A DNA stretch of 64,000 nucleotides from an uncultured Chloroflexia bacterium (GTDB lineage: Bacteria; Chloroflexota; Limnocylindria; Limnocylindrales; CSP1-4), in the NCBI GenBank assembly GCA_963824735.1, contig CAWGQH010000005.1, positions 35,193 through 99,192 of the forward strand. The letters are read 5' to 3'. The position numbers and the translations under genes are program-made. This document shows positions 7,538 to 26,789 of this stretch, one piece after another. How positions within the stretch are numbered: the stretch's first letter is position 1; each line of letters starts with the position of its first letter. Below the pieces are notes generated by a model, which searched no databases, had not been told where the DNA came from, and saw only the letters and a list, made by a program, of their open reading frames with translations.

Positions 7538-7546
7538 CGATCCTCC

Positions 7547-7643
7547 TGGCGGGAGCGCATGGGAGTCGAACCCACCGCGCGACGCCGAGCGCCGCGCCAC
7601 TGGTTTTGAAGACCAGGGGAGCCACCGGGCCCCAACCGCCCCC
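7547..7643 (-). tRNA. selC: tRNA-Sec (selenocysteine tRNA), anticodon UCA
   Basis: Minus-strand sequence GGGGGCGG TT GGGGCC CGGT GGCTCC C CTGGT CTTCAAA ACCAG [long variable arm] GTGGG TTCGACT CCCAT GCGCTCCC G CCA. Sec-type features: 6-bp D stem with 4-nt D loop, UCA anticodon in a CUUCAAA loop, about 23-nt variable arm, TTCGACT T-loop, encoded CCA. Lies immediately upstream of selA. Confidence 0.85.
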
Positions 7644-8343: not shown

Positions 8344-9407
8344 ATGACCACGCTCGAAACGCTGCCACCGATCCGCCTGACCGAGCTGACCGACTGCGGT
8401 GGCTGCGCCGCCAAGCTCGGGGCCGACCTGTTGAGCGACGCGCTCAGCGGGCTGGGAGCGGAAGGGGCGCCCGACGGAGCTCATCGCCGGCCTGGCACCA
8501 CCCGACGACGCGGCCGCCTATCGAGTCAGCCCGGAGCTCGCCATCATCGGCACGCTCGACTTCTTTCCACCGCTCGTCGACGACGCCCGGACGTACGGCG
8601 AGATCGCCGCGGCCAACGCCCTCTCGGACGTGTTCGCGATGGGCGGCCGGGTGCTCTTCGCGCTGTCGATCGCGGCATTCCCCGAGGACCTGCCGCGGGA
8701 CACCCTGGCCGCGATCTTCGACGGGGCATCGGCGAAGGTGCGCGAAGCGGGCGGCACGCTCGCGGGCGGTCACACGATCCGGGACCCCGAGCCCAAGTAC
8801 GGCCTGGCGGTCATCGGCGCGGCGCACCCCGACCGCCTCTTGCGCAAGGGCGGTGCCCGACCCGGTGACCGGCTGCTGCTGACCAAGCGGCTGGGGACGG
8901 GCGTGCTCGTGTCGGGCTCGCGCCAGGGGCGGACCGCGCCCGAGGACCTCGCCGCGGCGGTCGACCAGATGCGGACGTTGAACCGGGCGGCTTCGGAAGT
9001 GCTCGTCGAAGCGGGCGTCAACGCGGCGACCGACGTGACCGGCTTCGGCCTGCTCGGCCACGGCCTCGAGATGGCCCGCGCGTCCGGCGCCCGGTTCACG
9101 TTCGAGGCCGGCTCCCTGCCGGTCCTCGCCGGCGCGCTCGAGCTGGCGGCCGCCGGCGTCGAGACCGGCGGGGCAGCCCACAACCGGCGCTTCGTCGCCG
9201 ACGCGCTGACCGTCGCGGATGGAGTGGCACCCGAGCTCGTGACGCTCGCCCACGATCCGCAGACCTCCGGCGGGCTGCTGGCGGCCGTACCACCCGACCG
9301 CGTCGACGCGATCGAGGCCGCGCTCGACGAACGCAGGCGTCGAGCACTGGTGGATCGGCTCGGTCGATACGGACTCGACCGCCACAGGGACCGTCGCACT
9401 GACCTAG
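8344..9407 (+). CDS. selD: Selenide, water dikinase SelD (Cys-type; two apparent frameshifts)
   Basis: ATG at 8344 (MTTLETLPPIRLTELTDCGGCAAKLG…). …DDAAAYRV…LDFFPPLVDDARTYGEIAAANALSDVFAMGG…AGGHTIRDPEPKYGLAVIG…VTGFGLLGH…DPQTSGGLL. Frame shifts near 8460 (extra G in a GGGG run) and near 9335. Third frame ends …GVEHWWIGSVDTDSTATGTVALT* at TAG 9405-9407. Active site has Cys (CGGC), not Sec. Confidence 0.8.
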
Positions 9408-9463
9408 CGATTTCGGCCCGAACGGCCCATCCCGTCGGCGCCGGCGCCCGCCACGCTCGCGCC

Positions 9464-9808
9464 ATGCGTCAGCGAATCGCCCTCGCCGCGATCAAGGGCA
9501 TCCACACTGTCGCGTTCGCGGTGATCGCCACGTCGATCCTTGTCGTGCTCCTCGACGGGCTGCGGGGCCGCCCGACCCGGCGCACGGCAGCTGCCCTCGG
9601 AATCGCGCTGACCGAATGCGCCGTCTTTGCCGCGAATGGGTTCGTCTGTCCTTTGACACCGCTCGCCGAACGCCACGGTGCGCGACGCGGCTCGGTCAGC
9701 GACATCTTTCTGCCCGACGTGGTCGCCGAGAACCTGACCTGGTCCGCATCGACCGTCCTCGTGATCGGGATCGCCCTCAACGCCCGAGCGATCAGACGAG
9801 GTCGCTGA
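9464..9808 (+). CDS. Small membrane protein (2-3 TM), function unknown
   Basis: ATG at 9464. Hydrophobic helices IHTVAFAVIATSILVVLL and TWSASTVLVIGIAL. In frame with the spurious selD extension. Confidence 0.4.
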   Translation: MRQRIALAAIKGIHTVAFAVIATSILVVLLDGLRGRPTRRTAAALGIALTECAVFAANGFVCPLTPLAERHGARRGSVSDIFLPDVVAENLTWSASTVLVIGIALNARAIRRGR

Positions 9809-9838: not shown

Positions 9839-10540
9839 GTGCCTGCCCGCCTCGTCGCCCTGATCCCGGGCTACAACGAGGGTCCGCGGATCGGGCCGGT
9901 CGTCGAGGCGACGCTACGCCATCTCCCGGTCCTGGTCGTCGACGACGGCTCGGCGGACGACACCGCCGATCAGGCGCGCGCCGCTGGTGCGACGGTCATC
10001 GAACAGCGCCCGAACCAGGGCAAGGGCGCGGCACTCCGCCTGGGCTTCGAACGTGCCATCGCCGAGGGCTACAACGCCGTCCTCACGCTCGATGCCGACG
10101 GCCAGCACGACCCGGCGGAAATCCCGAAGTTCGTGGCCGCGTACGAGGCGGATCCGCGTCCGGACCTCGTCATCGGCCGGCGCAACTTCCGCACGATGCC
10201 ACCGACGCGCCGCCTCGCCAACGAGCTCGGCGGCCGCGCATTCTCATGGGCCGTCGGCCAGCCGATCCCCGACAACCAGTCCGGCTACCGGCTGATCGGA
10301 CGGCGGGTCATGGAGGCGACGCTCGGCAGCGACGAGGGCGGGTTCGAGTTCGAGGTCGAGATGATCACGACGTGCATCCGCCTCGGCGGCACGATCGCGT
10401 GGGTCCCGATCCGGACGATCTACGGCGCGCCGTCGCACATCCGGCCGCTCGACCACCTGCGCCACTTCATCCGGATCGTCCGGAAGGCACGTCGCGACGT
10501 GCGGACGCCCGCGGGGCTGACCGGCGCCGCCGATCCCCTC
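9839..10540 (+). CDS. Family-2 glycosyltransferase (DPM/GtrB-like); 3' end uncertain
   Basis: N-terminal 225 aa: IPGYNEGPRIGPVVEA…VVDDGSADDT…LDADGQHDP…QSGYRL. The ORF runs on to 12886 only as an antisense shadow of the LuxR gene. Confidence 0.65.
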
Positions 10541-13500
10541 CTGGTCGAAGCCGAGTCGCAGCGCCATCGCGACTGCCGCCCCGCGACCGCCGACGCCGAG
10601 CTTGCCGAGGATGTTGGACACGTGGACCGAAGCCGTCTTGTCGCTGATGAACAGGGCCTCTCCGATCTCACGATTGGTCAGGCCACCCGTCAGCAGCCCG
10701 AGCACCTCCCGCTCGCGGGCCGTCAGGCCCACGCCGAGATCGTCGCCGCCATCGGTCTCCCCGCCGAGATCGATGCGCGCCCGGCCCGCGAGGCCCGCGA
10801 CGGCCGCGAGCAACGGTTCGGCACCGAGCCGCGCTGCGGTGTCGGCCGCCGAGCGCAACGCTGCGGCGGCCTCCTCGCGCGCGGCACCGGTGGCCAGGAC
10901 CGTCTCGGCAAGGTGGAGACGACAGGTTGCCGCCTCGTAGACATACCCCAGGTCGTCGTACGCCTCGATCGCCGCCGTCCATGCTGCGATGTCGGACTGT
11001 CCGGCGAGCCGGAGGCGATCCGCGGCCCCATGGCGGACATAGGCCCGGAGCGTCGGTGGCCAACGCCCGGCGTCCGAGCCAAGGGCCAAAGCGGCCTCGT
11101 CCAGGATCCGAACGAGACGGAGGCCGCGCGCCTGCGCGGTCGCTACGCCGTCCGCGTCCCGTCGTCGCGTCGCGCGATCGGCCTCGTCGGCCTCCGCGGC
11201 CAGCGCCGCGCACAGCAGCCACCAGAGCGGGGCATCGTGGGCCGGATCCGCCGAGATGCTGAGCGCCTCGTCGATGGCGCTCCGGACCCGATCGATGTTG
11301 CCGCCGACGCGACCGAGGACGATGGCGGCGCGCATCACCCAGACGCGGTCGATGACGGCGTCCCCGGGACCGACGGCCTCGGACGCCGCTGCGAAGAGCT
11401 CAGCTGCTCCTTCCACGTCGCCGCGCATGGCGCAGATCTCGGCCAGCGATTCGAGATACCAGGGTGCGGAGCGACCCCCGTCCGCCTGCGCAAGCTCGGT
11501 CTCGCACAGGGCCACGGCCTCGTCCCAACGACCGAGATCGATGTAGCCGTCGACGATGTCGGTGACGAGGAACGGCCGGAAGCGGCGGAGCGAGCCGATC
11601 CGCGCCTGGCGGTCGAGCTCGTCGCGGATCAGTGCGTCAGCTTCTACATGCCGGCCACCCAGACACAGCGCGTAACTCAGCTGGCTGACCGCGATCCCGG
11701 ACCGGGGGTCGCCGGCAGCCAGGAACAGCGCATGTGCCTCGCGGAGGTCGGCGATGCCCTCGTCGAGCAACCCGTACGCCGCCCGGCCGGCGCCGATGCC
11801 CAGCAGCGCGCCGGCTTCGATGCCGACCTCGCCGGAGCGGCGCGCGGCCTCGATCGTCGCGTCGGCCGTGCGGACGATCTCGGGATAGCGGCCCATCCCC
11901 CACAGCAAGACGCCCCGCGTGGTCAGAAGCCGCGCGGTCCCGATCCCGGGGAAGTCGGAGCCAATCCACCCGAGCGCATGGTCGACGACCGTCAGGGCGC
12001 CGGCCTGGTCGCCGAGCTCCGAGAGGTACCAGGCGAGCCGGTCCGTTCGCCGCGCCCATGCTTCGCCGGGCGATGCGGTGTTGCCATCCGGTCCGCGCTC
12101 GATCGCCAGGCGAGCAAGCTCCACGGCGCGGCGGACACTGCCGGCGCTCGACGCAGAGGCCGCCGCACTGTCGTAGAGAGATGGCAGGTCGGTCCCCGTC
12201 TCCGACTCGGGATCGGCAACGCGGCTCCAGAGCCGGATGGCTCGCTCGAAATGCTCGAGTGCCTCGTCGTGAGCGAACACAGCCGCAGCCGCACGGCCTG
12301 CCCGAACCGACGCCCCGATTGCACGTCGATCGTCGTGGGCGCCGTGCCAGTGGTAGGCGAGCTCGGCGGTCAACCTTGCGTCCCCGTCCCAGTCGGCCGG
12401 GCCGCGGGTCGTAAGCGCCTCTGCGACGAGCGCATGGAGCGCGCTGCGCTCGGTCGGGAGCAGGTCCTCGTAGGCGACCTCCCGGACCAGCGCGTGGCGG
12501 AAATCGTACGCCGGGCCTCCATCGGTCTCGACCGGAACGAGCATGTGCTGATCCACGGCGTCGCGGAGGTCGTCGACGAGATCGGGCTCTGCGCGGTCGG
12601 CAACCGACGCGAGCAGGTCATGCTCCGCGCGCCGACCGATGACCGCCGCAATGCGCAGCACTCGCTGCGTCTCCTGGGCCAGGCCGGACAGCCTCGCGAG
12701 CAGGATCTCCTGGAGCGTCGGCGAGACGACGCCACGACGATCCCGAGAGGAACTCGTGAGCAGTTCCTCGACGAAGAACGGATTGCCATCCGACCGGCCC
12801 AGCACGTCCTCGACGAAACGCGCGCCGGGCACGGTTCCGAGGATCCCGGCGATCTGGGCCTGGACCTCGTCACGGTCGAGGCGTGAAAGGTCGATGCGCT
12901 CGACGGACGGCAGCCTTTCGAGAAGCGCGAGCAGCGGCAGCAGCGGATGCCGCCGCGTCAACTCGTCCGACCGGTACGTCCCGATCAGGACCAACCGCTC
13001 GTCGCGTAGCCGTCCCGCGAGGAACGTGAGCAGGGCGCGCGACGACGGATCGGCCCAGTGCAGATCCTCGAGCACGAGCACGATCGGTCGTGTCCAGCGC
13101 AAGGCGGCCCAGCACGTCGAGCACGGCTTCGAAGAGGCGCGGGCGCGAATCGACCCCGTCGTCGGGAGAGTGAACAGGGGAGGCCGGCGCGTCGCCGAGG
13201 CCGGGCACCAGGCGGGCGAGGTGGACGGCGCCGTCACCCGCTGCCTCGATGATCTGCTCGCGACCAACCTCGGCCAGCAGCGACCGAAACGCCTCGGTGA
13301 AGGGGCCGTAGGGCAGGTCGCTGTCGCCAAGTCCGATCGCGCCGCCGACGATGACGCCGAAGCCTTCGGCTCGAGCCATCGAGCTGGCCTCGGTCACGAG
13401 GCGCGTCTTCCCGACGCCGGCCTCTCCGGAGACGAGGACCGTCGAGGGCACGCCGCCCGATGCGCGGTCGCGCGCGGCGCGGAGCCGGTCGAGTTCGGCG

Positions 13501-13553
13501 AGGCGACCGGCCAGGGTCGGACTCACGACGCGGGTCGACATCGCGGGCATCAT
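10244..13553 (-). CDS. LAL-family (large ATP-binding LuxR) transcriptional regulator. At least one apparent frameshift; true stop probably near 10550.
   Basis: N-terminal AAA/NACHT-like VLVSGEAGVGKTRLV. …LVLEDLHWADPSS…LVLIGTYR in a different frame (shift near 13075). TPR-like middle. C-terminal HTH REREVLGLLTGGLTNREIGEALFISDKTASVHVSNILGKLGV. The 100 aa after …LRLGF look like a spurious extension. Confidence 0.7.
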
Positions 13554-13969
13554 CGACCCTGCCGCGACGGCGAGCAACGGATCAGCGGCCCCGCCGCCCG
13601 ATCGGTGACCGCCGGCCCATCTCAGTGGCGCGCGAAGCGGGCCACAAGGCGGCGGAGCCGAAAGGCTTCGTCCGTCCTGATACCGGTGGTCGGCCACGGC
13701 GGCCACGTCGTCGTCCGGGAGCGGCGGCACATCAGGCCGCCGGTGGAGGGCGCGCCATTCGTCGTCGGCGCGCCGACGGGCTTCGTCGCCAGAAAGGGCT
13801 CCCAGCGCCAGCAATCTTCCAAGTCCGTTCATCGGTCGTTCCCCGCTCGGTCAGCAGATCTCATGCTTCCACGATCGGACTAAGGGGCCGGGGATGCGCA
13901 TCGGGAGAACGCTCATTTCTCGGCGCGAGCGCTACACTCGTGCGGTCAGCTCCGCAGGAGGCCACCGCA
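13554..13969. promoter_or_regulatory. Divergent intergenic/promoter region between the LAL regulator and the Sec-containing fdhA
   Basis: 415 bp without convincing coding signal. Contains short inverted repeats (e.g. aacGCTCatttctcggcgcGAGCgct). AGGAGG SD sits 8 nt before the fdhA GTG. Confidence 0.3.
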
Positions 13970-15886
13970 GTGGCAAAGGCCTACGTTCGACTGACCCAGC
14001 CCCTCGTCCGCGACACGAAGGGCGGCGAGCTTCGACCCGCGACGTGGGACGAGGCGCTCGACCGGACCGTCGCCGGGTTCAGGACCGCGAACGCGGCCCA
14101 CGGCCCGTCGACATTCGGCATCTTCAGCTGCAGCAAGGCGACCAACGAGGTCAACTTCGCGGCGCAGAAGTTCAGCCGGGCGGTCCTGGGCAGCAACAAC
14201 ATCGACAGCTGCAACCGCACCTGACACGCCCCGAGCGTCGCCGGTCTGGCGACGGTGTTCGGTGCCGGTGGCGGCACAAGTTCATACCGTGAGATCGAAG
14301 AGACGGACCTGATCGTCCTGTGGGGCAGCAACGCCCGCGAGACGCACCCGATCTTCTTCCACCACCTCCTGCGCGGCGTGCGCAACGGCGCGCGCCTGTT
14401 CGCGGTCGATCCGCGGCGGACATCCTCGGCCGAATGGGCCGACACGTGGCTGGGTCTCGATGTCGGCAGCGACATCGCGCTGGCCAACGCCGTCGGCCGC
14501 GAGATCATCGCGGCGGGCCTCCAGCACCGCGAGTTCATCGAGCGGGCGACGTCGGACTTCGAGGCCTATCGCGCCGGCGTCGAGCCCTACACGCTCGAAT
14601 ACGCCCAGCGCGAGACCGGCGTGCCGGCCGATGCGATCCGCGAGCTGGCCCACGCCTTCGCGAAGGCCGACCGGGCGATGATCTGCTGGACGCTCGGCAT
14701 CACCGAGCACCACAACGCGGTCGACAACGTCCTCGCGCTCATCAACCTGGCGCTGCTGACCGGGCACGTTGGGAAGTACGGCAGCGGTCTCAACCCCCTG
14801 CGTGGCCAGAACAACGTGCAGGGCGGCGGCGACATGGGCGCGATCCCCGATCGGCTACCCGGCTTCCAGCACGTCGAGAACGACCGGCTTCGGGCGAAGT
14901 TCGAACAGGCGTGGGGGGTGACGATCCCGGACAAGCGCGGCCGCCACCTGACGGCGATGTGCGACGCGATGGCGTGCGGCGACCAGCGCCTGCTGTACGT
15001 GATCGGCGAGAACCCGGCCCAGTCGGAGGCCGACCAGGGCCGCATGCGCGGCATGCTCGAAGGCCTCGAGTTCCTCGTCGTCCAGGACCTGTTCCTGACG
15101 AAGACGGCGGAGCTGGCGGACGTCGTCCTGCCGGCGGCGGCCTCGTGGGCCGAGAGCGAAGGGACGGTCACGAACTCGGAACGGCGCGTCCAGCGCGTGC
15201 GCAAGGCGAAGGAGCCGCCCGGCGACGCGCGCGACGACCTGTGGATCATCGCCGAGCTCGCGCGCCGAATGGGCAGCGACTGGGGCTGGTCCGGCGCCGA
15301 GGACGCCTGGAACGAGCTGCGGACCCTGTCGCCGATGCACGCCGGAATGACGTACGCGCGGCTCGACGAGCTCGATGGCATCCAGTGGCCGTGCTACGAC
15401 GAGGACCACCCGGGCGAGCTGTTCCTCCACTCGCGGCTGTGGGAGGACCCGGTCCCGGGGATGCGCGCGCCGTTCGTGGCGGTCGAGCACGACCCGCCGG
15501 TCGACCGCCTCGACGACGACTTCCCGATCCGGCTCACGACCGGCCGCCGGCTCGACTCGTACAACACGGGCGTCCAGACCGCGGGCTACACATCGCCGCT
15601 GCGGCGCGGCGAGTCGCTCGACATCTCCCCGGAGGATGCCGCCGCGTACGGGCTCGTCGACGGCGAGCGCGTCTGCGTCACCTCGCGGCGCGGGCAGGTC
15701 GAGGCGCCGATCCGGATCGACGAGTCGCTGCGGCCAGGGCTGACGTTCATGACGCTCCATTTCCAGGACGACGTCGCGACGAACCTGCTGACCATCGACG
15801 CATGGGACCCGAAGTCGGGCACGGCCGAGTTCAAGGCCACGGCGATCCGCATCGAGAAGCTCCCGGCGGCCGAACCCGTCGCCTGA
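13970..15886 (+). CDS. fdhA: Formate dehydrogenase alpha, Mo-bisPGD catalytic module. Selenoprotein with in-frame UGA at 14222-14224; lacks the N-terminal Fe-S domain.
   Basis: GTG 13970 after AGGAGG. Aligns with E. coli FdhF from about residue 45: ELRPATWDEAL…, SNNIDSCNRT-U-HAPSVAGL (U = TGA) matching FdhF NNVDCCARVUHGPSVAGL, GQNNVQGGGDMGA…, C-terminal …AEFKATAIRIEK. The two tool ORFs 13460-14224 and 14255-15886 are in the same frame, separated only by the TGA. Confidence 0.85.
14232..14258 (+). promoter_or_regulatory. Bacterial SECIS-like hairpin downstream of the UGA-Sec codon
   Basis: 12 nt after the TGA: gtcgcc GGUCU ggcgac (14237-14253, 6-7 bp stem). Apical loop carries GGUC, as in the E. 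coli fdhF SECIS. Confidence 0.55.
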
Positions 15887-16205
15887 GCCGCACCTCTCGC
15901 CGCCGCCGTGATGTCCCGTGGCCGGCCACGTTCATGGCCTCGGGCTCAGCCGGTAAGACCGGCCGTGCTCGGTGCATGGACGCTGCGAACGGAGCGCTCC
16001 GCGGATCCCCTGCAACCAGCCTCCGCTCGGGCGGATAGGACGCTGGATTCCTCGCCCATGGTCACGCCGGGCCGGAACGTTCCGGTTCGGGGCCGATATC
16101 GTCGTCCCCTGTGCTCCCAGCGTCCATGGACCAAGAACCGCCGTGGCGATCCAGGTGGTGGGCCGGCGGCGTCTCGGCGAGCGGCGTCAGCCGGCGCGAG
16201 CGGGG

Positions 16206-17435
16206 TCAGCCGGACGAGGGCGGCGTGGGCGGCGGGATGGGCGTGTACGGCATCGAGGTGGACGGCGGGTCTGCCTCTCCGGAGTCGCCCTGGTCACGCC
16301 GGAGCACCAGCTCCAGGCCGATGATCAGCACGGCCGCGAGCAGTGCCACCTCCAGCCCGACGGCGATCCACAGCACGACCAGCGCGACCAGGGCGAGCCC
16401 GATCCGCTCCCTCGACCGCTCCGAGCTGAACGACGCCCTCGAGACCGAAGGCCGGCCAAACGCGTAGACAACGATGGCGATGATCCCGAGGACAAGCAGG
16501 ATGAGAGCGCCCAGCCGCGGAAGTCGGAAAGCGTGGCATCGAGGATCGACGCGAACGGCGCCGCGCAGTCCCTTGCTCGCGATCGAGGCGGTCATGCGCG
16601 TCGCTCGCCGCCCTCGTGAACAGCCGAGCGAGCAAGAAGGTGACGATCGTGCCGAGGGCGAGATAGATCACCATGCGGCGCCGGTTCCCCGACAGCCAGA
16701 TCGCGAGCGCGACGAGCGCCACGGCGAGCGCCATCAGGACGATGACGACGAGGTCGAAGACGCGGACGGCCGTCTGGGCGGTCTCCAGCCGTTCGACCGG
16801 CATGAGCGGGATCGTGCCGAAGTCCTCGGGGAAGCGTCACGCCGAGCCGGGTCTCGAGGATCCCCCGGACGACGCCGGGCGGCTCCGCCGTTGCGGGATC
16901 GGGAAGCTGCGACGTCAGGGGCGATGATCCCTGCGGTCTGCAACTCCTGGAGCGCGACGAGCAGCGCCGGGTAGACCTCGAGCACCACCTGGCCGTCGAC
17001 GACGGTCACCGCCTCCGCCCGGTCGCGGAGCAGGTTCATCACCCGCTCGTGGGCGAACGCCAGCGTCCTCGTCAGGGCCTGCTGCATGCGCGGCTCGGCG
17101 AGCAGCGTCTCGAGGCGGCGCGTCAGCCCGTCCTGCAGCGCGAGGGTGACGGGTCCTGCGATCGCAGTCACCCGCTCGGGCAGCACATTCGCCAGGCGCG
17201 ACTGGACGTCGAGCGTGGTGACGACCTGCGTGCTGATGCGTGCCGCCAGCGGGTCGATGACCTCGGGGTCGTCGAGCACGTCGCTGGCAAGCGCCGTGAA
17301 CCGATCCGAGTTCAACGCGACCTGGTGCGCCCAGACAGCCACCGTCGCGACGACGATCGTGATGCACGCGAGGACCAGGCTGATCCCCGCCAGGACGCTG
17401 CGCCTCCGCGACACGCGCCTTCCGCCGGCGTCCAT
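16206..17435 (-). CDS. Membrane protein of unknown function (N-terminal TM, extracytoplasmic domain, 3-4 C-terminal TM; two apparent frameshifts)
   Basis: ATG 17433-17435 preceded by GGGGAGGG. Three consecutive frames each carry plausible protein sequence (…LAGISLVLACITIVVATVAVW…, …VFDLVVIVLMALAVALVALAIW…, …IGLALVALVVLWIAVGLEVALLAAVLIIGL…). Confidence 0.45.
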
Positions 17436-17545
17436 CTGGCCCTCCCCATTTCGCTCCATGTAACGCGGACCACAGTAGCAGCCGCCTGTCGGGCGAAGCG
17501 CAGGACGGGCGCCACGCGCATCCACGCCCCTCGTACCATCACGCC

Positions 17546-19260
17546 ATGCGCAACCCGCTGCCGATCGCGATCCTGGCCGCCGCGCAGTTCGTGATGGTGC
17601 TCGACAGCAGCGTCATGAACGTGTCGATCTCGCAGATCGTGGCCGACCTCGACACCACGATCCAGGGCGTCCAGCTGGCCATCACCGCGTACACGCTCGT
17701 CATGGCCGCGTTCATGCTCGTCGGCGCGAAGCTGGGCGACATCTGGGGACGCGATCGGGCCTTCGCGGTCGGCCTGGTGGTCTACGCCACGGGCTCGTTC
17801 ATCACGGCCATCAGCCCGAACCTCGCCGTCCTGCTCTTCGGCTGGTCGCTGATCGAGGGCCTCGGGGCGGTGCTCGTGGTCCCCGCGATCGCGGCGCTCG
17901 TCGCGCAGAACTACGAGGGCAAGGAGCGGGCGCTGGCCTACGGGATCGTCGGTGGCGTCGCGGCAGCCGCGATCGCGGCCGGTCCGGTGATCGGCGGCTG
18001 GGTGACGACCACGTTCACGTGGCGCCTGGTGTTCGTCGGCGAGGTCTTCATCGTTGCCGTCATCCTGCTCACCCGGAAGCGCATGAAGTCCGCGCCCGCC
18101 GAACCGAACCCGCCGAGCCTCGACATCGTCGGCGCCGCCCTCTCGGCGAGCGGCCTGGCGATCATCGTGCTGGCCATCCTCCAGAGCAGCACGTGGGGCT
18201 TCATCCTGCCGCGCGTGGTCCCGGTCATCGCCGGTCGCGAGATCACGCCGCTCGGGTTCTCCGTGGTGCCGTTCCTGATCCTCGCCGGGCTCGGCCTCCT
18301 GTTCGTCTTCGAGGCCTGGGAGCAGCGCCTCGCCCGGCTCGGTCGCGACCGACTGCTCGACTCCGCGCTGCTCGGGATCGTCCACCTTCGCGCCGGGCTG
18401 GCGACCCTCGGCGCCCAGCAGCTGGTCCTGCTCGGGACGTTCTTCGTGCTCCCCGTCTACCTCCAGGTCGTCCTCGGGCTCAATGCCCTGGAGACCGGCC
18501 TGCGCCTGCTGCCGATGTCGGTGACGATGCTGATCGCGGCGCTGACCGGCCCGAAGATCGCCGCCCGGCGGTCGCCGAAGGCCGTGTGCCGGCTCGGCCT
18601 GGTGGCGATCTCGGTCGCGGCGGTCGTCCTGCTGGCGACCCTCGACATCGAGCTCAACGACGTCGGGTTCCTGGTCGGACTCGCGGTGTTCGGCGTCGGG
18701 GCCGGGTTGCTCGCATCGCAGCTCGGGAACGTGATCATCTCGGCGGCCCCACCCGCGCAGACGAACGAGGCCGGCGGCCTCCGGTCTGCTCGCATCGCAG
18801 CTCGGGAACGTGATCATCTCGGCCGCACCGCCGGAGCAGACGAACGAGGCCGGCGGTCTTCAGGGCACGGCCCAGAACCTCGGCGCATCGCTCGGGACGG
18901 CGCTCATCGGCGCGATCCTGCTGATCGGGCTGACAAACGGGTTCGTGGAGCGGATCACGGCGAACGAGGAGCTCCCCGCCGAGCTTCGGACGACCGTTGC
19001 CACGGCGGCGAGCGAGCAGGGGCTCGAAGTCATCCCGGTCACGGAGGTCGAGCAGTTCCTGACGGACGCCGGCCTCCCGCCCGACCAGGCCGAGGCCATC
19101 GCGACGGACTACGGCGCCGCGCAGCTCGACGGCCTCCGGCTGGCCCTCGGCGGGGTCGCGCTGCTGGCGCTGCTCGGCCTGTTCTTCACCCGGAACCTGC
19201 CCGACCGGTCGACCCAGGAGGAGGCTGGTCGCCGAAGAACCCGTTCCGGTGGCGGCACCG
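17546..19260 (+). CDS. MFS transporter, DHA2 (14-TM drug:H+ antiporter-like), interrupted by a 79-bp tandem duplication; 3' end approximate
   Basis: N-terminal MRNPLPIAILAAAQFVMVLDSSVMNVSISQI… and multiple TM helices. After the duplication the frame continues …QGTAQNLGASLGTALIGAILLIGL…LLALLGLFFTRNLPDR. Confidence 0.7.
18711..18868. repeat. Imperfect 79-bp tandem duplication inside the MFS gene
   Basis: cgcatcgcagctcgggaacgtgatcatctcggc…cagacgaacgaggccggcgg occurs twice (18711-18789, 18790-18868) with several substitutions. The 79-bp period gives a +1 frameshift. Both copies encode LASQLGNVIISAAPP(A/E)QTNEAGGL. Confidence 0.75.
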
Positions 19261-19302
19261 GCCGGCTGACTCGGCGCCCGCCGGGCGCCTACACTCGGGG
19301 CG

Positions 19303-19900
19303 ATGGATCTGCACGTCATCGGGCCCCTCGCGTCCCCGGCCGAGCGGGCCGCGGTCGACGCGGTCCTCGGGCCACCGGCGACTCGCTGGGTCGGCGGTGA
19401 GCGAACGCCCGGTTCCGAGGGCCACGTGTCCCACGGCGGCCACGCCGCCCGCTCGCGACGCGATCTGCTGCTCCCGGTACTGCACGCGGTCCAGGACCGC
19501 ATCGGCTGGATCAGCCAGCCGGCCCTGAACTACGTCTGCAAGCGGCTGACGATCCCGCCGGCCGAGGCCTACGGCGTGGCCACGTTCTACGCGCTGTTCG
19601 CGACGAAGCCGCGGCCACCGGTCGTGGCCCACCTGTGCGACGACATCGCCTGCCGGCTGGCCGGCGCCGAGACGGTGATCGGCGACGTGGAGCGGGCGCT
19701 CGGTCCGGAGGGGCAGCCCTCCGCCGATGGAGAGCGAACCTGGCTCCGATCGCCCTGCCTCGGCCTGTGCGACCGCGCGCCCGCGGCACTGGTCACCGTC
19801 GCCGGTGCCGCAGCCGGTGACGATGGCAGCGGCCCCGGTCGACGCCGCCGGGATCGTGGCCCGGATGGCGCCTGGTTACAACGGCCGCGGCCGGCACGCC
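19303..19900 (+). CDS. fdsG: NAD-dependent formate dehydrogenase gamma subunit (NuoE-like 2Fe-2S protein); 3' end/junction with the next gene unclear
   Basis: …GVATFYALF…HLCDDIACRLAG…CLGLCDRAPAALV (four-Cys 2Fe-2S pattern of the NuoE/24-kDa family). Frame ambiguities in 19800-19910; possible fusion to the NuoF-like gene. Confidence 0.65.
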
Positions 19901-19910
19901 CGAAGACGCC

Positions 19911-21144
19911 GTGCCGCAAGCCGGCCAAGCGGACCTCCGACTCCTGGCACGGGTGGGCGTCGTCGATCCGACGTCCCTTGACGACTACCGCGCCCACGGC
20001 GGCTTCCGCGCCCTCGAGCGCGCTCGCGCGATCGGGCCGGAGCAGGTGATCGACGAGGTCACGAGGTCCGGGCTCCTCGGCCGCGGCGGCGCGGCGTTCC
20101 CCACCGGGCGCAAGTGGGCGGCCGTGGCCGCCCAGCAGGCCCAGCCCCACTACCTGGTCTGCAACGCGGACGAGTCGGAGCCCGGCACGTTCAAGGACCG
20201 GGTGCTCATGGAGGGCGACCCGTTCGCGGTCATCGAAGCGATGGCGATCGAGGCGTTCGCCGTCGGGGCGGGCAAGGCCTACCTCTACATTCGCGGCGAG
20301 TACCCGCTGGCCGAAGCACGGATCGCGAACGCGATCACGGCGGCGACCGAAGCCGGCCTGCTCGACGGGCTCGACATCGAGCTGCGACGTGGGGCAGGCG
20401 CCTACATCTGCGGCGAGGAGACGGCGCTGTTCGAGTCGATCGAAGGAAAGCGCGGCGAGCCGCGCAACAAGCCGCCGTACCCGGTGGAAGTCGGCCTGTT
20501 CGACAAACCGACGGCCGTCAACAACGTCGAGACGATCGTCAACGTGCTGCTGATCGTGGGCGAGGACGGCGGTGCGGAGGCGTTCAAGGCGATCGGCACC
20601 GAGGGCTCGACCGGCCCGAAGCTGTTCTGCCTGTCGGGCAACGTCGAACGACCCGGGCACGTACGAGGTCCCGTTCGGGACGACGCTCGGCGAGCTGCTC
20701 GCGCTCGGCGGCGGCGTCCCCGGCGGTCGGGAGATCAAGGCGATCCTGCTCGGCGGGGCCGCCGGCGTGTTCGTGGGGCCCGATGCGCTCGACCTGCCGC
20801 TGACCTTCGAGGCCACGCGCGCCGCCGGGGCGACCCTCGGCTCGGGCGTCGTGATGGTGTTCGACGAGCGCGCCGACCTCGTCGGCACGCTGACCCGGAT
20901 CGCCCAGTTCTTCCGCGACGAGTCGTGCGGGCAGTGCGTCCCGTGCCGGGTCGGGACGGTCCGCCAGGAGGAGCTGCTCGCCCGCCTCGCGGCAGGTTCG
21001 GGCGTGCGCTCGCGCGAGGACGAGCTCGTGCTGCTGCGCGAGGTCGGGCAGGCGATGCGCGACGCCTCGATCTGCGGGCTCGGCCAGACCGCGTCCTCGG
21101 CGATCGAATCGGCGTTCCGACAACCCGGGCTGGTGGCCCTGTGA
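19911..21144 (+). CDS. fdsB: NAD-dependent formate dehydrogenase beta subunit (NuoF-like; NAD/FMN-binding, 4Fe-4S), one apparent frameshift
   Basis: GRGGAAFPTGRKW…YLVCNADESEPGTFKDR…YLYIRGEY…YICGEETALFESIEG. After a frame change near 20650 (extra G in cccggg): …TYEVPFGTTLGELL…ESCGQCVPCRVGT…CGLGQ. Stop 21142-21144. Confidence 0.8.
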
Positions 21145-22214
21145 GCGACGACCTGCAGCGCACGGCCGCGCCGCGCTTCCCTGTCGCAGCGGTGACGCAG
21201 GTTTCGCCGATCGTGCTCGAGCCGCCGGCCCGACCAAGCCGGATCCCGCAGCCGCCGCCGGTCGAGGCCCCGCCGCAGGTCGAGCTGACGATCGACGGCG
21301 TCACCGTCACGGTCCCGCAGGGCTCGACGATCCTCGACGCCTGCCGGGCGCTCGCGGTCGACACGCCGACGCTGTGCTACGCCGACAACCTCACGCCGGT
21401 CAACGTCTGCCGGGTCTGCGTCGTCGAGGTCACCGGGTCGCGCGTCCTCGTGCCGTCCTGTTCGCGCAAGGCCGAGCCCGGGATGGAGGTCTTCACCGAC
21501 TCCGAGCGCGTGCGCACGTCGCGCAAGGTCGTGCTCGAGCTGCTCGGCTCGTCGGTCGACCTGTCGCTGGCCGGCCCGGCCGTGCCCGACGGCTCGCTCG
21601 CGGACTGGTCGCAACGCTACGGCGCGGACCCGAGCCGCTTCGGGCCGCCGGCCGAGCCCGCGGCCGCCGGCGAGCGCGACACCCACGACCCGGGCCATCA
21701 CCACGCGCCCCACGGTGACGCGGAGACGGCCACGGTCGCGCAGCCGGTCAAGGTCGACAACGACCTGTACGTGCGGGACTACGCGAAGTGCGTGCTCTGC
21801 TACAAGTGCGTCGAGGCGTGCGGCGAGGACGCCCAGAACACGTTCGCGATCGCCGTCGCGGGGCGCGGCTTCGACGCCCGCATCTCGACCGAGTACGCGA
21901 CGCCGCTGCCGACGTCGGCGTGCGTCTACTGCGGCAACTGCATCGGCGCCTGTCCGACCGGCGCGCTGATGTTCAAGTCGGAGCACGACATGCGCGCCGA
22001 AGGGACGTGGGACGAGTCGGCGCAGACCGTGACCAACACGATCTGCCCGTACTGCGGCGTCGGCTGCTCGCTGGACCTCCACGTCCAGGACGACGAGATC
22101 GTCAAGGTGACCTCACCGCTCGACTCGAGCGTCACCGAGGGCCACCTCTGCATCAAGGGCCGCTTCGGCTTCGAGTTCGTCAACGAGCGCCCCGGCCGTC
22201 CGAACCAGAGCTGA
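21141..22214 (+). CDS. fdsA: Formate dehydrogenase alpha subunit, N-terminal Fe-S module only (NuoG-like; ends at the start of the MopB domain)
   Basis: GTG 21141 overlapping the fdsB stop (GTGA). 2Fe-2S ferredoxin part (…LCYADNLTPVNVCRVCVVEV…SCSR), two 4Fe-4S motifs (CVLCYKCVEACGE, CVYCGNCIGACPTGA), MopB N-terminal cluster CPYCGVGCSLDLH…CIKGRFGFEFVNE, then stop at 22212-22214. Confidence 0.8.
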   Translation: MSDDLQRTAAPRFPVAAVTQVSPIVLEPPARPSRIPQPPPVEAPPQVELTIDGVTVTVPQGSTILDACRALAVDTPTLCYADNLTPVNVCRVCVVEVTGSRVLVPSCSRKAEPGMEVFTDSERVRTSRKVVLELLGSSVDLSLAGPAVPDGSLADWSQRYGADPSRFGPPAEPAAAGERDTHDPGHHHAPHGDAETATVAQPVKVDNDLYVRDYAKCVLCYKCVEACGEDAQNTFAIAVAGRGFDARISTEYATPLPTSACVYCGNCIGACPTGALMFKSEHDMRAEGTWDESAQTVTNTICPYCGVGCSLDLHVQDDEIVKVTSPLDSSVTEGHLCIKGRFGFEFVNERPGRPNQS

Positions 22215-22216
22215 GC

Positions 22217-22256
22217 GGGTCGGCCGACGGAGATCCGGACCGGCCGACCCTTTGGC
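22217..22256. terminator. Hairpin terminator between convergent fdsA-N and the TolB-like gene
   Basis: Perfect 10-bp inverted repeat gggtcggccg … cggccgaccc (22217-22226 / 22241-22250) followed by TTTGG. Confidence 0.45.
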
Positions 22257-22276: not shown

Positions 22277-23185
22277 TCACCTCGCGGCTGCCATGCCGGA
22301 ACCGACTGCAGCCCGAACGAGGCTGACCAGGTGGATCGTGCCGTCGCCCAGATCCACGTAGCGGTTGGCCCGGTCGTCGAACCGGAGGAACGCGATGAAG
22401 CGCCCGTCCGGCGACCACGAGTCCCGAAGTCGTCCGTCGGGCCGCCGACGACGACGTGCTGATCGCTCCCGTCCGCATTCATGACCAGGATGTCGCCCGG
22501 GTCGCCGGCGGCGTACGAGAACTTCGATCCGTCAGGGCTCCAGTCCGGGGTCTGGTCCTTGAAGACCGGATCGAACGTGAGCTGGGTCTGCCCGTTGCCG
22601 TTGGCGTCCATGACGAACACCTGGCCGGTGTCGTCGATGCGGGAGCTCGTGAAGACGATCTTTGTGCCGTCCGGCGACCAGGCCGGGTTGCCGTCGAACC
22701 CAGGATCCGTCGTGAGCTGGGTGAGATCCGTTCCGTCCGCGTCGATCCGCCAGATGTCGTCGTTCGTGCCGCCCGGCAGGCGCCCGGCGAAGACCAGCTG
22801 CGTGCCGTCCGGCGAGAAGTCGGGGAACGTCATCCGACCGCCCAGGTTCGTCAGCTGGCGCTTGTCCTCGCCGTTGGCCTTCATCGTCCAGATCTCGATG
22901 ATCCCGCCCCGTGCGCGAATGCCGTGACACCACGCGATCTGCTTGCCATCACTCGACCACGCGGGGCACGCGTCGAAGTCCACGTGATCGGTCAGCCGCA
23001 GGCGCGCCTGTCCGTTCGGCAGCGTCGAATAGAGGTCGACGTTCCCCTCGACGTCGGCGCCGAAGACGATCCTTCCATTGACGCGAGCCCGGATAGGTGG
23101 CCGCGACCGGTTGAACCAGCGCGCCCGCGAGGGCCGCTGCGGCTACCAATCCCGCCAAGGTTCTCGTTCGTGCTCGATTGCGCAT
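22277..23185 (-). CDS. TolB-like periplasmic beta-propeller (PD40/WD40-like repeats) protein, two apparent frameshifts
   Basis: Signal-like N-terminus MRNRARTRTLAGLVAAAALAGALV. Repeated …SPDG(T/K)…(V/F)…S/R…DG… blades (AWSSDGKQIAW, FSPDGTQLVF, AWSPDGTKIVF, DWSPDGSKFSY, SWSPDGRFIAF). Frame changes near 23085 and 22430. Confidence 0.6.
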
Positions 23186-23292: not shown

Positions 23293-24435
23293 TCAGGGCC
23301 TGACGGCGTCCACCTGCAACAGCAGATCGCTGGCCGCCGTCGACACCCAGAGCGAGTCGTCTATCCAGTAGGAGTCCATGAACGTCGAACCCGGGAGCGG
23401 GATCTGGAATGCGAGCTCATTGGTGTCCGGATCGACGGCCGAGATTCCATTCGGGTTCGACGCCCAGACGTAGCCCCCGCCAAACGACAGGCCGAGCGAA
23501 GGGCTCGTCCCGAACCCCTCGATCGTCGCAATCACCTCGCCTGTTTCTGGATCGACTCGGACAAGCTCGAGCTGCCGGTTACGGACCCACAGCGAATCGA
23601 ACCCCAGCTCGAGCTCCACCGGGCCGAACCCGACGTCGACCGTGTCGGTCACCTCGGCGGCAACGGGATCGATCCGCACCAGGGCGTTGCCGGCATCGCA
23701 GGCAACCCAGATGGCATCGGCGGCGAGCACGATCTGCTTGGGCTCCTCGCGGGACGTCGATCGATGCGAGGACTTCGCCGGTCGCCATGTCGACGCGGAC
23801 GACGTTGCCGTTCTCGTCGAACCCCCAGACCGTGTCGCCATCCTTGGCAACCGTGAACCCCGGGATGCCTTCGAACCGTTCCAGCTCGCGTCCCGTACTG
23901 CGGGTCGACGCGCACGAGTACCTGCTCCGCGCCCTTCTGGACCCAGAGGTCGGCACCCTTCGAGGAACATCCAGTGAGCCGCCGTCGACCATGAGCCGGA
24001 TTGCAGGCCAGTGGAGGGATCGATCCCCCTGACGCCAACGTCGTCGGCCTGGACCCAGACTCGGGACGGCGTCGCGAGGACCTGCCACGTGTCGGCCCCG
24101 AGGTCGATCTGGCGCACGACCTGCGGATACGGGTTCGGCGTGCTGGTTGGCGCAGATGACGGAGTCGGAGCCGGGACGAACACGAGAGCCGGCCGGCCGC
24201 CGAGTCCGATAACGGCCGCCAAGCCGCCGGCGATGAGCAGCGCGGCTGCCACGGCCAGCAGGCGGAGCGGTGGACGTGTGATCGGCCCGCGACGGAGGAT
24301 CGGGCGACGCTCCTGGCGCGTCGTCGCGAGGGTCGCGAGGATCCTGCTCGGAGACGCGCTCGGCGGACACGCGGCGCCTCCCGCGCATCGAGCCAGCGCC
24401 AACCCGAACGTCGAGATCCTGATCGCGTAGTTCAT
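23293..24435 (-). CDS. Putative anti-sigma factor with single TM and extracytoplasmic beta-propeller-like domain (internal apparent frameshifts)
   Basis: ATGA overlap with the upstream ECF sigma gene. TM LLAVAAALLIAGGLAAVIGL. Conserved-looking …VRVDPETGEVIATIEGFG…/…VRVDMATGEVLASIDVP… repeats lie in two frames. Confidence 0.5.
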   Translation of the reverse strand: MNYAIRISTFGLALARCAGGAACPPSASPSRILATLATTRQERRPILRRGPITRPPLRLLAVAAALLIAGGLAAVIGLGGRPALVFVPAPTPSSAPTSTPNPYPQVVRQIDLGADTWQVLATPSRVWVQADDVGVRGIDPSTGLQSGSWSTAAHWMFLEGCRPLGPEGRGAGTRARRPAVRDASWNGSKASRGSRLPRMATRSGGSTRTATSSASTWRPAKSSHRSTSREEPKQIVLAADAIWVACDAGNALVRIDPVAAEVTDTVDVGFGPVELELGFDSLWVRNRQLELVRVDPETGEVIATIEGFGTSPSLGLSFGGGYVWASNPNGISAVDPDTNELAFQIPLPGSTFMDSYWIDDSLWVSTAASDLLLQVDAVRP

Positions 24436-24977: not shown

Positions 24978-25070
24978 GCCACCCTCGCGGGCCAGCCGCA
25001 TCTCGGCTGTTCGACATCATGACGCGGCCACGGCGACGAAACGTTCAATTCGCCCGCCAGGCGGCCGGAT

Positions 25071-25946
25071 CTACCCCCAGCCGACGAGGTCGCGCAGGTC
25101 GATCCGGTCGTCGTGGGTGTAGACGTTGAAGCCGTCGCCGCGGAGGAAGCCGACGAGCGTGACGCCGAGCCGTTCCGCGGCCGAGATCGCGAGGTCCGAC
25201 GGCGCCGACACGGCACAGAGGATCGGGATGCCGGCGACGGCCGCCTTCTGGACGATCTCGAAGCTCACCCGACCGGACACCATCAGGATCGTGTCGTGGA
25301 GCGGGAGCCGGCCCGCGAGCACCTGCGACCCGATCGCCTTGTCGAGCGCGTTGTGCCGCCCGACGTCCTCGCGCAGCACGAGCAGCTCGCCGGTCGTTGA
25401 GAACAGCCCCGACGCGTGCAGGCCGCCGGTCTCGTCGAACGCCCGCTGAGCGGCACGCAGCGCGTCCGGTAGCGCCAGGATCGTCGAGCGGGCGACGACC
25501 GGTGCGCCGGCCGGGATCGGCTCGGCGCGGAGGGCCACCTCGTCGAGCGAGGCCTTGCCGCAGATCCCGCAGGACGCCGTGGCGATGAAATGGCGCTCGG
25601 CAACGCGCGAGGCATCGAAGGCGCTCGACAGGCGAACCACCGCGGTGTCGTCCGGCTGGTTCATCGTCGTTGGATCGCCGGTCTCGACCCGGAGCACCTC
25701 CGGGCCCTCGATGAGGCCCTCGGTGCGCAGGAACCCGACCGCCAGTTCGTCCTCGTAGCCGGGAGTCCGCATCGTCACGGCCACAGCCACCGGCTCCTGC
25801 TTCGGCCCGGCAGCGCGGATCTCGAGCGGCTCCTCACCGACCACGCGATCCGCTCGAACCTCGAGCCCATCGCCGCGGACGGCGATGATCCGCGTCGTCG
25901 TCACGTGGCGTGTAGGTGGCGGGACCTCGTCGATTCGATCTGTCAT
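25071..25946 (-). CDS. fdhD: Formate dehydrogenase accessory sulfurtransferase FdhD
   Basis: ATG 25944-25946. Motifs …ATASCGICGKASLDEV… and …EDVGRHNALDKAIG…. Confidence 0.85.
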   Translation of the reverse strand: MTDRIDEVPPPTRHVTTTRIIAVRGDGLEVRADRVVGEEPLEIRAAGPKQEPVAVAVTMRTPGYEDELAVGFLRTEGLIEGPEVLRVETGDPTTMNQPDDTAVVRLSSAFDASRVAERHFIATASCGICGKASLDEVALRAEPIPAGAPVVARSTILALPDALRAAQRAFDETGGLHASGLFSTTGELLVLREDVGRHNALDKAIGSQVLAGRLPLHDTILMVSGRVSFEIVQKAAVAGIPILCAVSAPSDLAISAAERLGVTLVGFLRGDGFNVYTHDDRIDLRDLVGWG

Positions 25947-26067
25947 CGCGTTCGAGTCTAGTACCCGGCGTACCGGTCGCGGACCGGACCGATGGCGAGT
26001 CGATTTCGCCTTGACCAGTCGGGCATACTGCCGCCGCGGGACGTGCCCGCGAGGGATAGGAGGGGTC

Positions 26068-26789
26068 GTGAGCGACTGGGTCTGCGGCCGCTGCAAGTCG
26101 GTCAATCGAGAGCGCGCGGCCGCGTGCTACAGCTGCGGCGGGATCCGCGGCGCCATCCAGCTGGAGCCGAGTGGTGCGGTCGCCACACCAGCGTCGGCGA
26201 TGGGTACGAGGGCAGTGCCGGCTTCGCCCGAGGCAGCCGGGGCACCGGTCGCCGCGGCTCCGTTGGCCACGGCCACGCTCGCGAGCGGGATCCCCGTCGC
26301 CGAGGTGACGGCACCGGCACGGTCGCGCCGGCCGAGCCGGCGACGATGGGCGATATCGCCGGCGGCGTCATCGGCGGAGCCATCGGGGCGGTCCTGGCGA
26401 CCGCGCTGTGGTACGGCGTCGTGGCGATCACCAACTGGCAGGTCGGGATCATCGCGGTCGCGGTCGGCTTCATCGTCGGCCAGGGCGTCGTGTTCGGAGC
26501 TGGCCGCCACCCATCGATCGCGCTCGTGCCGATCAGCGTGGTATTCACGCTGGTATCGCTGGTCGTCAGCGAATACCTGATCGCGCGGCATTTCCTCGGG
26601 ATCGCGGCCGCCGAGATCTCGGCCGAGTTCGGGGTAACGATCGCCGAGGTGGAGGCCGAGTTCGCGTCGCCGATCGAGCTGCTCCGGTTCTCGCTCGAGA
26701 CCGAGCCGATCACGCTGCTGTTCTGGGCGATCGCGGGCTGGGAGGCCTTCATCATCCCGATGCGGGCAGCGACGCGCTCGCGGTCCTGA
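26068..26789 (+). CDS. Zinc-ribbon plus multi-TM membrane protein (one apparent frameshift)
   Basis: GTG 26068 after AGGAGG. N-terminal CGRCKSVNRERAAACYSCGG (CxxC…CxxC). After a frame change near 26340: …IAGGVIGGAIGAVLATALWYGVVAI… with 4 hydrophobic helices. Confidence 0.5.

Follow-up and report, generated by a model that had tools for sequence, protein, structure and literature searches.

A metal-dependent formate dehydrogenase (FDH) whose alpha subunit is divided between two genes appears to be encoded in a stretch of 64,000 nucleotides (nt) from an uncultured Chloroflexia bacterium (Limnocylindrales, CSP1-4; GenBank assembly GCA_963824735.1, contig CAWGQH010000005.1, positions 35,193 to 99,192), hereafter called the window. 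We propose, with a probability of roughly 0.8, that the two genes encode subunits of one cytoplasmic, NAD(P)-linked enzyme carrying selenocysteine (Sec) and a molybdenum or tungsten bis(pyranopterin guanine dinucleotide) cofactor (Mo/W-bisPGD), and that this enzyme belongs to a family in which the alpha subunit is divided at the boundary between the domain of the proximal [4Fe-4S] cluster, FS0, and the pterin-binding body. A first-pass annotation of the window had already described the alpha subunit as two separately initiated genes on the same strand, which is borne out by the domains and the individual starts of both genes. The features that carry the argument are the following.

13956..13961, plus strand: Shine-Dalgarno motif AGGAGG, 8 nt before the GTG start at 13970
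13970..15886, plus strand: catalytic half, the Mo/W-bisPGD-binding body of a formate dehydrogenase, lacking an Fe-S domain; start codon GTG, Sec at codon 85
19303..21144, plus strand: fused nuoE-nuoF (diaphorase) with [2Fe-2S], a flavin mononucleotide (FMN)/NAD(P) site and [4Fe-4S]; three 1-nt insertions as assembled
21141..22214, plus strand: Fe-S half with [2Fe-2S], a 2x[4Fe-4S] ferredoxin domain and a MopB Fe4S4 (FS0) domain; GTG start

The catalytic half is a 1917-nt open reading frame (ORF) of 638 codons with a single in-frame TGA, and the AGGAGG motif and GTG start that had been assigned to it are indeed present in the sequence. Pfam detects Molybdopterin from residue 7 onwards (profile positions 1-352 of 353, E 5e-68), followed by Molydop_binding as the second domain (E 9e-27), and finds no Fe4S4 (FS0) domain in this product, which begins directly at Molybdopterin profile position 1. 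Among solved structures it matches FdhF, the FdhF of the hydrogen-dependent CO2 reductase (HDCR), an F420-dependent FDH and FdsA at E values from 1e-124 to 1e-147, and the cluster-free dimethyl sulfoxide (DMSO) reductase types are reached only at 1e-31, compared with 1e-147 for FdhF types. Its active-site motifs NRT-U-HAPSVAGL, containing the Sec-His pair, and ...NPLRGQNNVQG, containing the conserved Arg, align to the FdhF-type motifs, and the best NCBIfam model is TIGR01591 (Fdh-alpha, 672 positions) with an E value of 1.5e-165. These matches place the catalytic half in the FS0-dependent FdhF/FdsA lineage, unrelated to the cluster-free DMSO reductase types.

As the NasC and NasA models of NCBIfam also match the catalytic half (E 1e-106 and 1e-93), the gene could in principle encode a different MopB enzyme coupled to NAD(P)H, for example one resembling assimilatory nitrate reductase. 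We consider this highly improbable given that TIGR01591 is much the best model, that FDHs typically possess the Sec-His pair and this conserved Arg motif, that the best solved relatives are all formate dehydrogenases, and that fdhD is found adjacent to the operon:

25071..26105, minus strand: fdhD, Pfam FdhD-NarQ at E 5e-66; NF001943 at 274 bits, cut-off 269

FdhD is the sulfurtransferase and chaperone that serves the Mo-bisPGD of formate dehydrogenase, and its gene is located downstream of the Fe-S half in relatives as well.

The Fe-S half (1074 nt, 357 amino acids (aa)) consists of Fer2_4, the 2x[4Fe-4S] ferredoxin domain and Molybdop_Fe4S4, the latter covering profile positions 2-54 of 55 and ending at residue 348 of 357. 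No pterin domain was found in it by Pfam, which confirms the earlier description of a protein with a 2Fe-2S cluster, two 4Fe-4S clusters and the MopB Fe4S4 domain that stops at the pterin-domain boundary. Sixteen Cys residues are invariant in its family, arranged as C-x10-C-x2-C-x13-C, two copies of C-x2-C-x2-C-x3-C, and C-x2-C-x3-C...C, and they fit one [2Fe-2S] and three [4Fe-4S] clusters. The MopB Fe4S4 motif C-x2-C-x3-C...C-x-K is invariant across the alignment, including its Lys. In terms of the well-studied Rhodobacter capsulatus enzyme, all ligands of the on-pathway clusters A1, A2, A3 and A5 are retained. The ligand positions of cluster A4 are occupied by V139, a gap, G145 and G151, replacements that are themselves invariant in the family, and NADH-G_4Fe-4S_3 (PF10588), describing the N5-type His-ligated cluster, gives no Pfam match in the Fe-S half. 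A conserved GHHH motif was observed between the [2Fe-2S] and ferredoxin domains, in the region of residues 137-152.

Residues 39-348 of the Fe-S half align to R. capsulatus FdsA 18-304, while residues 7-628 of the catalytic half align to FdsA 308-931 and the alignment to Escherichia coli FdhF begins at FdhF residue 61. TIGR01591 is likewise divided at about position 51/52, with 1-51 matching the Fe-S half and 141-672 matching the part of the catalytic half behind the TGA. The alignments thereby locate the fission point at FdsA 304/308 with nothing lost or duplicated, in agreement with the clean junction described in the first-pass annotation. As the catalytic half is devoid of an Fe-S cluster and the Fe-S half of a pterin domain, each is incomplete on its own, and the two are exactly complementary. 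No other MopB or NuoG-like copy was detected in the whole window.

Between the two halves lies the fused nuoEF, whose Pfam domains 2Fe-2S_thioredx, Complex1_51K, SLBB and NADH_4Fe-4S are spread over three frames as assembled; intact versions in relatives comprise 614-633 aa. Its stop codon overlaps the start of the Fe-S gene in the sequence GTGA (21141-21144), and because of this overlap translational coupling of the two genes is suggested. Read-through of the TGA stop of the Fe-S half was considered and rejected, as the downstream frame shows no homology, the tails vary among relatives and a terminator-like hairpin follows:

22217..22255, plus strand: terminator-like GC-rich hairpin (10 bp) with a trailing TTTGG, located immediately behind the TGA stop of the Fe-S half; fold -27.7 kcal/mol

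This hairpin was found by eye and had been missed in a promoter and terminator consensus scan, which is uninformative in DNA of such composition (the G+C content of the window is about 71 %).

To place the split in a wider context, relatives were collected in a one-genome-per-species scan that yielded at least 596 candidates, the best 80 of which were used. These 80 stem from Chloroflexota, Actinomycetota, Acidobacteriota, Planctomycetota, Rokubacteria, Eisenbacteria, Binatia, Armatimonadota and a spirochaete metagenome-assembled genome, about nine phyla altogether, and the closest of them are labelled Candidatus Limnocylindrales with identities of up to 91 %. A protein search with the Fe-S half returned at least 8000 homologues. 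The best 120 of these are 334-392 aa long, 75-98 % identical, display the same domain set without a Molybdopterin domain, and share a conserved stop position a few residues past ...GRFGFEFVNERP / ...CIKGRFGFEFVNERP. Searching with the catalytic half likewise gave at least 8000 homologues, of which the best 120 are nearly all around 542 aa in length and start just after the TGA, with few longer ones. A search using only its first 150 residues recovered many independently called 84-aa ORFs spanning the stretch from the equivalent start codon to the TGA. None of these pre-TGA ORFs from relatives contains an Fe4S4 domain. Start codon and Shine-Dalgarno motif of the catalytic gene are conserved in about 58 related loci, the start codon (ATG, GTG or TTG) in relatives being accompanied by a GGAGG-like motif and preceding the conserved RLTxPLVR by 4-7 codons. 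With starts and stops conserved in dozens of genomes, the break is a clean fission at a domain boundary rather than a random one, as had been proposed.

A fused copy was not encountered in any of the close relatives. A representative-library search with the Fe-S half was dominated by fragments and was used only for the identities of the nearest long proteins; those of at least 760 aa are merely 36-48 % identical to the Fe-S half. Because these nearest long and presumably fused proteins are so distant, the split family represents an old, separate clade.

The four modules were then mapped by tblastn, with 65 loci providing enough upstream flank. The order catalytic half, fused nuoEF, Fe-S half on one strand was found in 61 of them, so the split described for the window recurs in related genomes. 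The catalytic gene lies no more than 250 bp from nuoE in 43 of the 61 loci and is followed by an insert of 0.66-4.9 kb in 18, mostly Chloroflexota, and in none of the mapped loci is the catalytic half located downstream of the Fe-S half or fused to it. The identities of the two halves to those of the window correlate across loci (r = 0.77). We regard this three-gene order as the ancestral operon, usually contiguous and with fdhD nearby. How it arose is a matter of speculation; a tandem duplication of an operon in which the diaphorase genes precede a fused alpha gene, with subsequent loss of its outermost portions, would produce the observed order.

In the window, the catalytic gene is separated from nuoE by 3.4 kb and from the start of the Fe-S half by 5.25 kb, counted from its stop codon. 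The two halves are thus indeed apart, although by less than the distance of about 6 kb given initially. As the catalytic gene resides upstream of nuoEF in all 61 loci, the additional distance in the window is due to DNA inserted before nuoEF, with nothing relocated. Flanking and intervening genes are:

10244..13832, minus strand: LAL-type regulator, divergent; AAA_16, TPR and GerE (Pfam); two frames as assembled
16206..17525, minus strand: inserted cargo, membrane protein gene(s); three frames as assembled, with counterparts in the same place in L085 and L086
17546..19400, plus strand: inserted cargo, DHA2/EmrB-type efflux gene of the major facilitator superfamily (MFS); Pfam MFS_1, with TIGR00711 matching the intact L086 orthologue

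L085 and L086 are independently assembled contigs from other ENA samples; between 3.0 and 26.3 kb they are collinear with the window, with a nucleotide identity of 82-96 %. The first-pass annotation had interpreted the arrangement as a gene fission in which the selenoprotein half, equipped with a LAL regulator of its own, was relocated. Such a recent, lineage-specific event would explain the 3.4-3.8 kb with minus-strand genes that separate the catalytic gene from nuoEF in the window and its closest relatives, as well as the divergent regulator upstream. It is nevertheless very unlikely, since the fission is common to about nine phyla and the three-gene operon is contiguous in most of the loci, the catalytic gene precedes nuoEF in all 61, the split family is deeply diverged from fused forms, and the inserts differ in length and, where genes were called, in content, with a guanylate cyclase gene, or YCII, PIN and other genes, in this position in other relatives. 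The regulator is present upstream here and in L085 and L086, so that this part of the initial description stands, but it is absent from L001 and L002. Only the closest relatives have a LAL regulator at this position; in other relatives selD, an aldo-keto reductase gene or different genes precede the catalytic gene, and the regulator is no conserved partner of the operon.

The cargo between the catalytic gene and nuoEF is an unrelated, lineage-specific insertion. Both its membrane protein and MFS genes, previously taken to be intact, are disrupted as assembled, and what had been called an fdsGB operon is actually the single fused nuoEF gene with its three 1-nt insertions. The membrane protein gene(s) at 16206-17525 gave no significant Pfam match. 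A role of the MFS gene as an OxlT-like formate/oxalate transporter was rejected, as DHA2/EmrB efflux models match.

The Fe-S half matches the HoxU model NF005745 (131 bits, E 4e-38), and stand-alone HoxU-type proteins are known. The products of the two genes might therefore be independent of each other, NuoEF and the Fe-S protein forming a HoxEFU-like diaphorase and the MopB protein using another acceptor or substrate. MopB enzymes without FS0 do exist, DMSO and trimethylamine N-oxide reductases being examples, and a few loci lack a nearby catalytic half. We judge this reading unlikely. The Fe-S half ends in a MopB-specific Fe4S4 domain that would have no role without a MopB partner, its HoxU score is far below the cut-off of 333 bits, and the catalytic half falls into the FS0-dependent lineage on the scores given above. 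Furthermore, the synteny in 61 of 65 loci and the correlated identities of the halves speak for a joint function. Subunits of one formate dehydrogenase hence remain our preferred reading.

Decoding of the in-frame TGA as Sec would rely on a machinery encoded close by:

14222..14224, plus strand: in-frame TGA (Sec codon) within the motif SCNRT-U-HAPSVAGL
14236..14254, plus strand: hairpin resembling a selenocysteine insertion sequence (SECIS); 6-7 bp stem, GGUCU apical loop, beginning 14 nt after the UGA
4273-6129, minus strand: selB, Pfam GTP_EFTU and SelB-wing_3
6126-7635, minus strand: selA, two overlapping ORFs as assembled; SelA profile positions 1-155 and 164-366
7547..7643, minus strand: tRNA-Sec (anticodon TCA), ARAGORN
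8400..9808, plus strand: selD-like gene, AIRS/AIRS_C domains (Pfam); frame change near 8470

Sec decoding at this TGA is plausible because tRNA-Sec, selA, selB and selD are found within 10 kb, together with a SECIS-like hairpin showing covariation. The hairpin has the sequence GUCGCC-GGUCU-GGCGAC, and with its GGUC-type loop resembles the SECIS element of E. coli fdhF. Across 38 distinct sequences, 93 % of the cells in the stem are paired, compared with 16-78 % when the partner is slid, and one compensatory exchange of C-G to G-C, produced by two synonymous third-position changes, occurs in three sequences. The hairpin would fit a bacterial SECIS element, with coding constraint weakening the test. 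A TGA occupies the Sec position in essentially all related loci, in keeping with the initial assignment of the codon. Cys replaces Sec in the Nonomuraea-type homologues P0396 and P0400. A strict tie of the split to Sec was rejected, as Cys-type catalytic halves with the same short N-terminus occur in actinomycetes such as Nonomuraea. As a side observation, the segment 7660-9411 (about 1.75 kb), which holds the larger part of the selD-like gene, is missing from the otherwise collinear L085 and L086; selD next to tRNA-Sec could be a presence/absence polymorphism.

Several genes of the window are broken as assembled. The reading frame of nuoEF changes from 1 to 2 to 3 and back to 1, and comparison with the intact 614-aa nuoEF of L085 reveals single-base insertions near 19807, 19883 and 20658 in addition to a 6-nt deletion. 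The genes selA and selD, the LAL regulator gene and the minus-strand membrane protein gene are each split between frames, and a 79-nt tandem duplication at 18702-18859 (copies 90 % identical), which is absent from L085 and L086 and probably an assembly artefact, shifts the frame of the MFS gene. The genes broken in L085 and L086 are different from those of the window, and aligning the window with L085 opens 38 gaps within 6 kb that are mostly coding. The frameshifts are most likely consensus errors of long-read assembly, real decay in this strain being the less simple explanation. The split itself is not a misassembly, since the collinear contigs L085 and L086 share with the window the order selB-selA, LAL regulator, catalytic gene, minus-strand membrane genes, MFS gene, nuoEF, Fe-S gene, PD40 protein gene and fdhD.

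These broken genes and the duplication could also be taken to mean that the two halves are an assembly artefact or non-functional pieces of a decaying, formerly fused fdsA/fdhA gene, all the more as operons have decayed in some actinomycetes. In Nonomuraea polychroma (L087, 8001-8738), a Cys-type catalytic half retains its first ~170 residues, which are joined to the C-terminal part of FdhD and look like what a deletion left of the whole operon, and in another actinomycete (L088, 8001-13500) a complete operon is broken into many small ORFs. We nonetheless regard this reading as exceedingly improbable, and the conserved synteny already contradicts it. The two genes are uninterrupted ORFs (1917 and 1074 nt), a split with matching start and stop positions recurs in at least 80 species-level genomes and thousands of proteins, one of the two collinear contigs encodes an intact nuoEF, and a fused copy was not found among close relatives.

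Some observations weigh against a single functional enzyme formed by the two halves. If real, the three frameshifts in nuoEF would leave the enzyme dead in this strain. As a minus-strand gene intervenes, the catalytic gene in the lineage of the window must now be transcribed separately and no longer together with its partners. Among the 65 loci, four (L025, L027, L050 and L074) combine nuoEF with the Fe-S gene and lack a catalytic half in the flank that was fetched, and L059 (Chthonomonadaceae) has an Fe-S gene without detectable nuoEF; the partner genes of these five may be encoded elsewhere or missing. The covariation of the SECIS-like stem is weak, consisting of one compensatory pair, and confounded by codon constraint. 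TIGR01591 was scored against the post-TGA part of the catalytic half (543 aa of the 638-aa product), and this part reaches 552 bits at a cut-off of 666. Lastly, the electron path of the putative complex is predicted from homology to the R. capsulatus enzyme.

The physical complex, the electron path and the cofactor specificity that we infer would be as follows. The cluster-free catalytic subunit would oxidise formate at its Sec-Mo/W-bisPGD site and pass the electrons to the [4Fe-4S] cluster FS0, which the Fe-S subunit would provide in trans through its C-terminal domain. From there they would travel through the two ferredoxin-type [4Fe-4S] clusters and the [2Fe-2S] cluster to the NuoF-type [4Fe-4S] cluster and FMN, and finally to NAD(P)+, a chain that would equal the on-pathway sequence A1-A2-A3-A5-B6-FMN of Rhodobacter FdsABG. 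The reverse direction, making the enzyme a CO2 reductase, would be possible as well, and the complex of the three proteins would be soluble. With A4 absent, an FdsA-type dimer probably does not form.

In R. capsulatus FDH, electrons pass from the bis(molybdopterin guanine dinucleotide) via A1, A2, A3, A5 and B6 to FMN, and A4 (His117, Cys121, Cys124, Cys130) lies off this path at the dimer interface (PMC7171172). The FdsABG(D) enzymes of R. capsulatus and Cupriavidus necator (PDB 6TG9/6TGA; PMC7171172) share with the split family their NuoE-like, NuoF-like and NuoG/HoxU-like modules and the FdhF-like body; the ligands of A1, A2, A3, A5 and B6 are conserved, and the two halves together cover FdsA 18-931. 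In contrast to the single alpha chain of ~950 aa in FdsABG, alpha here consists of two polypeptides with nuoEF between their genes in relatives. The split family also differs in its gene order of catalytic half, nuoEF and Fe-S half, in the fusion of NuoE with NuoF, in the use of Sec instead of Cys in the active site and in the lack of the His-ligated A4. As the first-pass annotation had suspected, this is not the textbook Fds arrangement, both the single alpha polypeptide and cluster A4 being missing.

The pairing of an FDH with a single NuoE-NuoF-like flavoprotein is also found in the two-subunit FdhAB of deep-sea Chloroflexi (PMC5736913). Unlike in FdhAB, where an alpha subunit of ~900 aa combines Fe-S domains and MopB body, alpha is divided in the window and the genes are permuted. 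NAD(P)-dependent FdhAB of the Moorella thermoacetica type is cytoplasmic, often contains Sec and has a fused NuoEF-type beta subunit. Similar to HoxU in the HoxEFU module of [NiFe] hydrogenases, the Fe-S half is a stand-alone subunit resembling the N-terminal part of NuoG that would wire a NuoEF-type flavoprotein to a separate catalytic subunit. It differs from HoxU, which partners a hydrogenase and is devoid of the MopB Fe4S4 domain, by carrying that domain, and no hydrogenase genes were found near the Fe-S half.

Detached parts of MopB proteins are known from the other end of the chain. In formylmethanofuran dehydrogenase, the C-terminal cap (Molydop_binding) is detached from FwdB as FwdD. 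The Methanothermobacter FDH likewise has its MopB C-terminal cap domain on a separate subunit (PMC7171172). In contrast to both, it is the FS0 domain at the N-terminus that is detached here, along with the entire Fe-S chain upstream of it.

In all structurally characterised metal-dependent formate dehydrogenases known to us, FS0 and the pterin site reside in one chain, and we know of no MopB enzyme with a detached FS0 domain. An operon with a Sec-encoding fdhA directly before nuoEF was reported in 2016 for a planctomycete and Plesiocystis pacifica and thought to be nearly unique, with evidence of horizontal transfer of fdhA-nuoEF among Planctomycetes, Proteobacteria and Acidobacteria (PMC4807772). 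It probably belongs to the same operon family as the window. That account does not mention that fdhA lacks the Fe-S front end, nor a third gene, and the operon is actually widespread. A description of the split was not found in the searched literature including a 2026 review, most subscription journals lying outside this coverage, so that its absence is no proof. Apparently, the split family is abundant in databases and undescribed.

Further features of the neighbourhood touch none of these points. Between the Fe-S gene and fdhD, the minus-strand segment 22264-24998 encodes a PD40/WD40-like beta-propeller, a 380-aa ORF and an extracytoplasmic function (ECF) sigma factor (24432-25001), and the beta-propeller repeats are the source of the direct-repeat family D1. 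Given relatives with fdhD directly after the Fe-S gene, this block may be a second insertion. A 30-nt inverted repeat (13759-13788 / 22425-22454, 80 % complementary) brackets the region from the catalytic gene through the Fe-S gene and is probably due to chance in DNA of 71 % G+C.

The catalytic gene is cut at its Sec codon by gene callers, and the Fe-S gene goes by '2Fe-2S protein', 'HndD' or 'YjgC' in the output of annotation pipelines. Due to this truncation and the misleading labels, metagenomic surveys probably undercount split FDH. The finding is relevant to metagenome annotation as well as to specialists in molybdenum enzymes and FDH engineering, and overturns no principle. Metal-dependent formate dehydrogenases are intensively studied for CO2 reduction, and the split family indicates that the catalytic body is separable from the whole Fe-S wire at the junction FdsA 304/308, offering engineers of modular or split FDHs a natural blueprint.

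The split might also be adaptive rather than neutral, an idea that we hold to be doubtful. The Sec-containing pterin subunit might be a cluster-free, separately matured 'cartridge' that, after Sec insertion and loading with Mo/W-bisPGD by FdhD, docks on a pre-assembled diaphorase of NuoEF and the Fe-S subunit. If so, failed UGA decoding would yield nothing but an 84-aa peptide and no truncated Fe-S protein competing for NuoEF, and the level of the catalytic subunit could be regulated independently, as the insertion in the lineage of the window would allow. The enzyme would then be the first MopB enzyme to receive its proximal [4Fe-4S] cluster from another polypeptide, in a family that seems to be frequent in uncultured soil members of the Chloroflexota, Actinomycetota, Acidobacteria and Planctomycetes.

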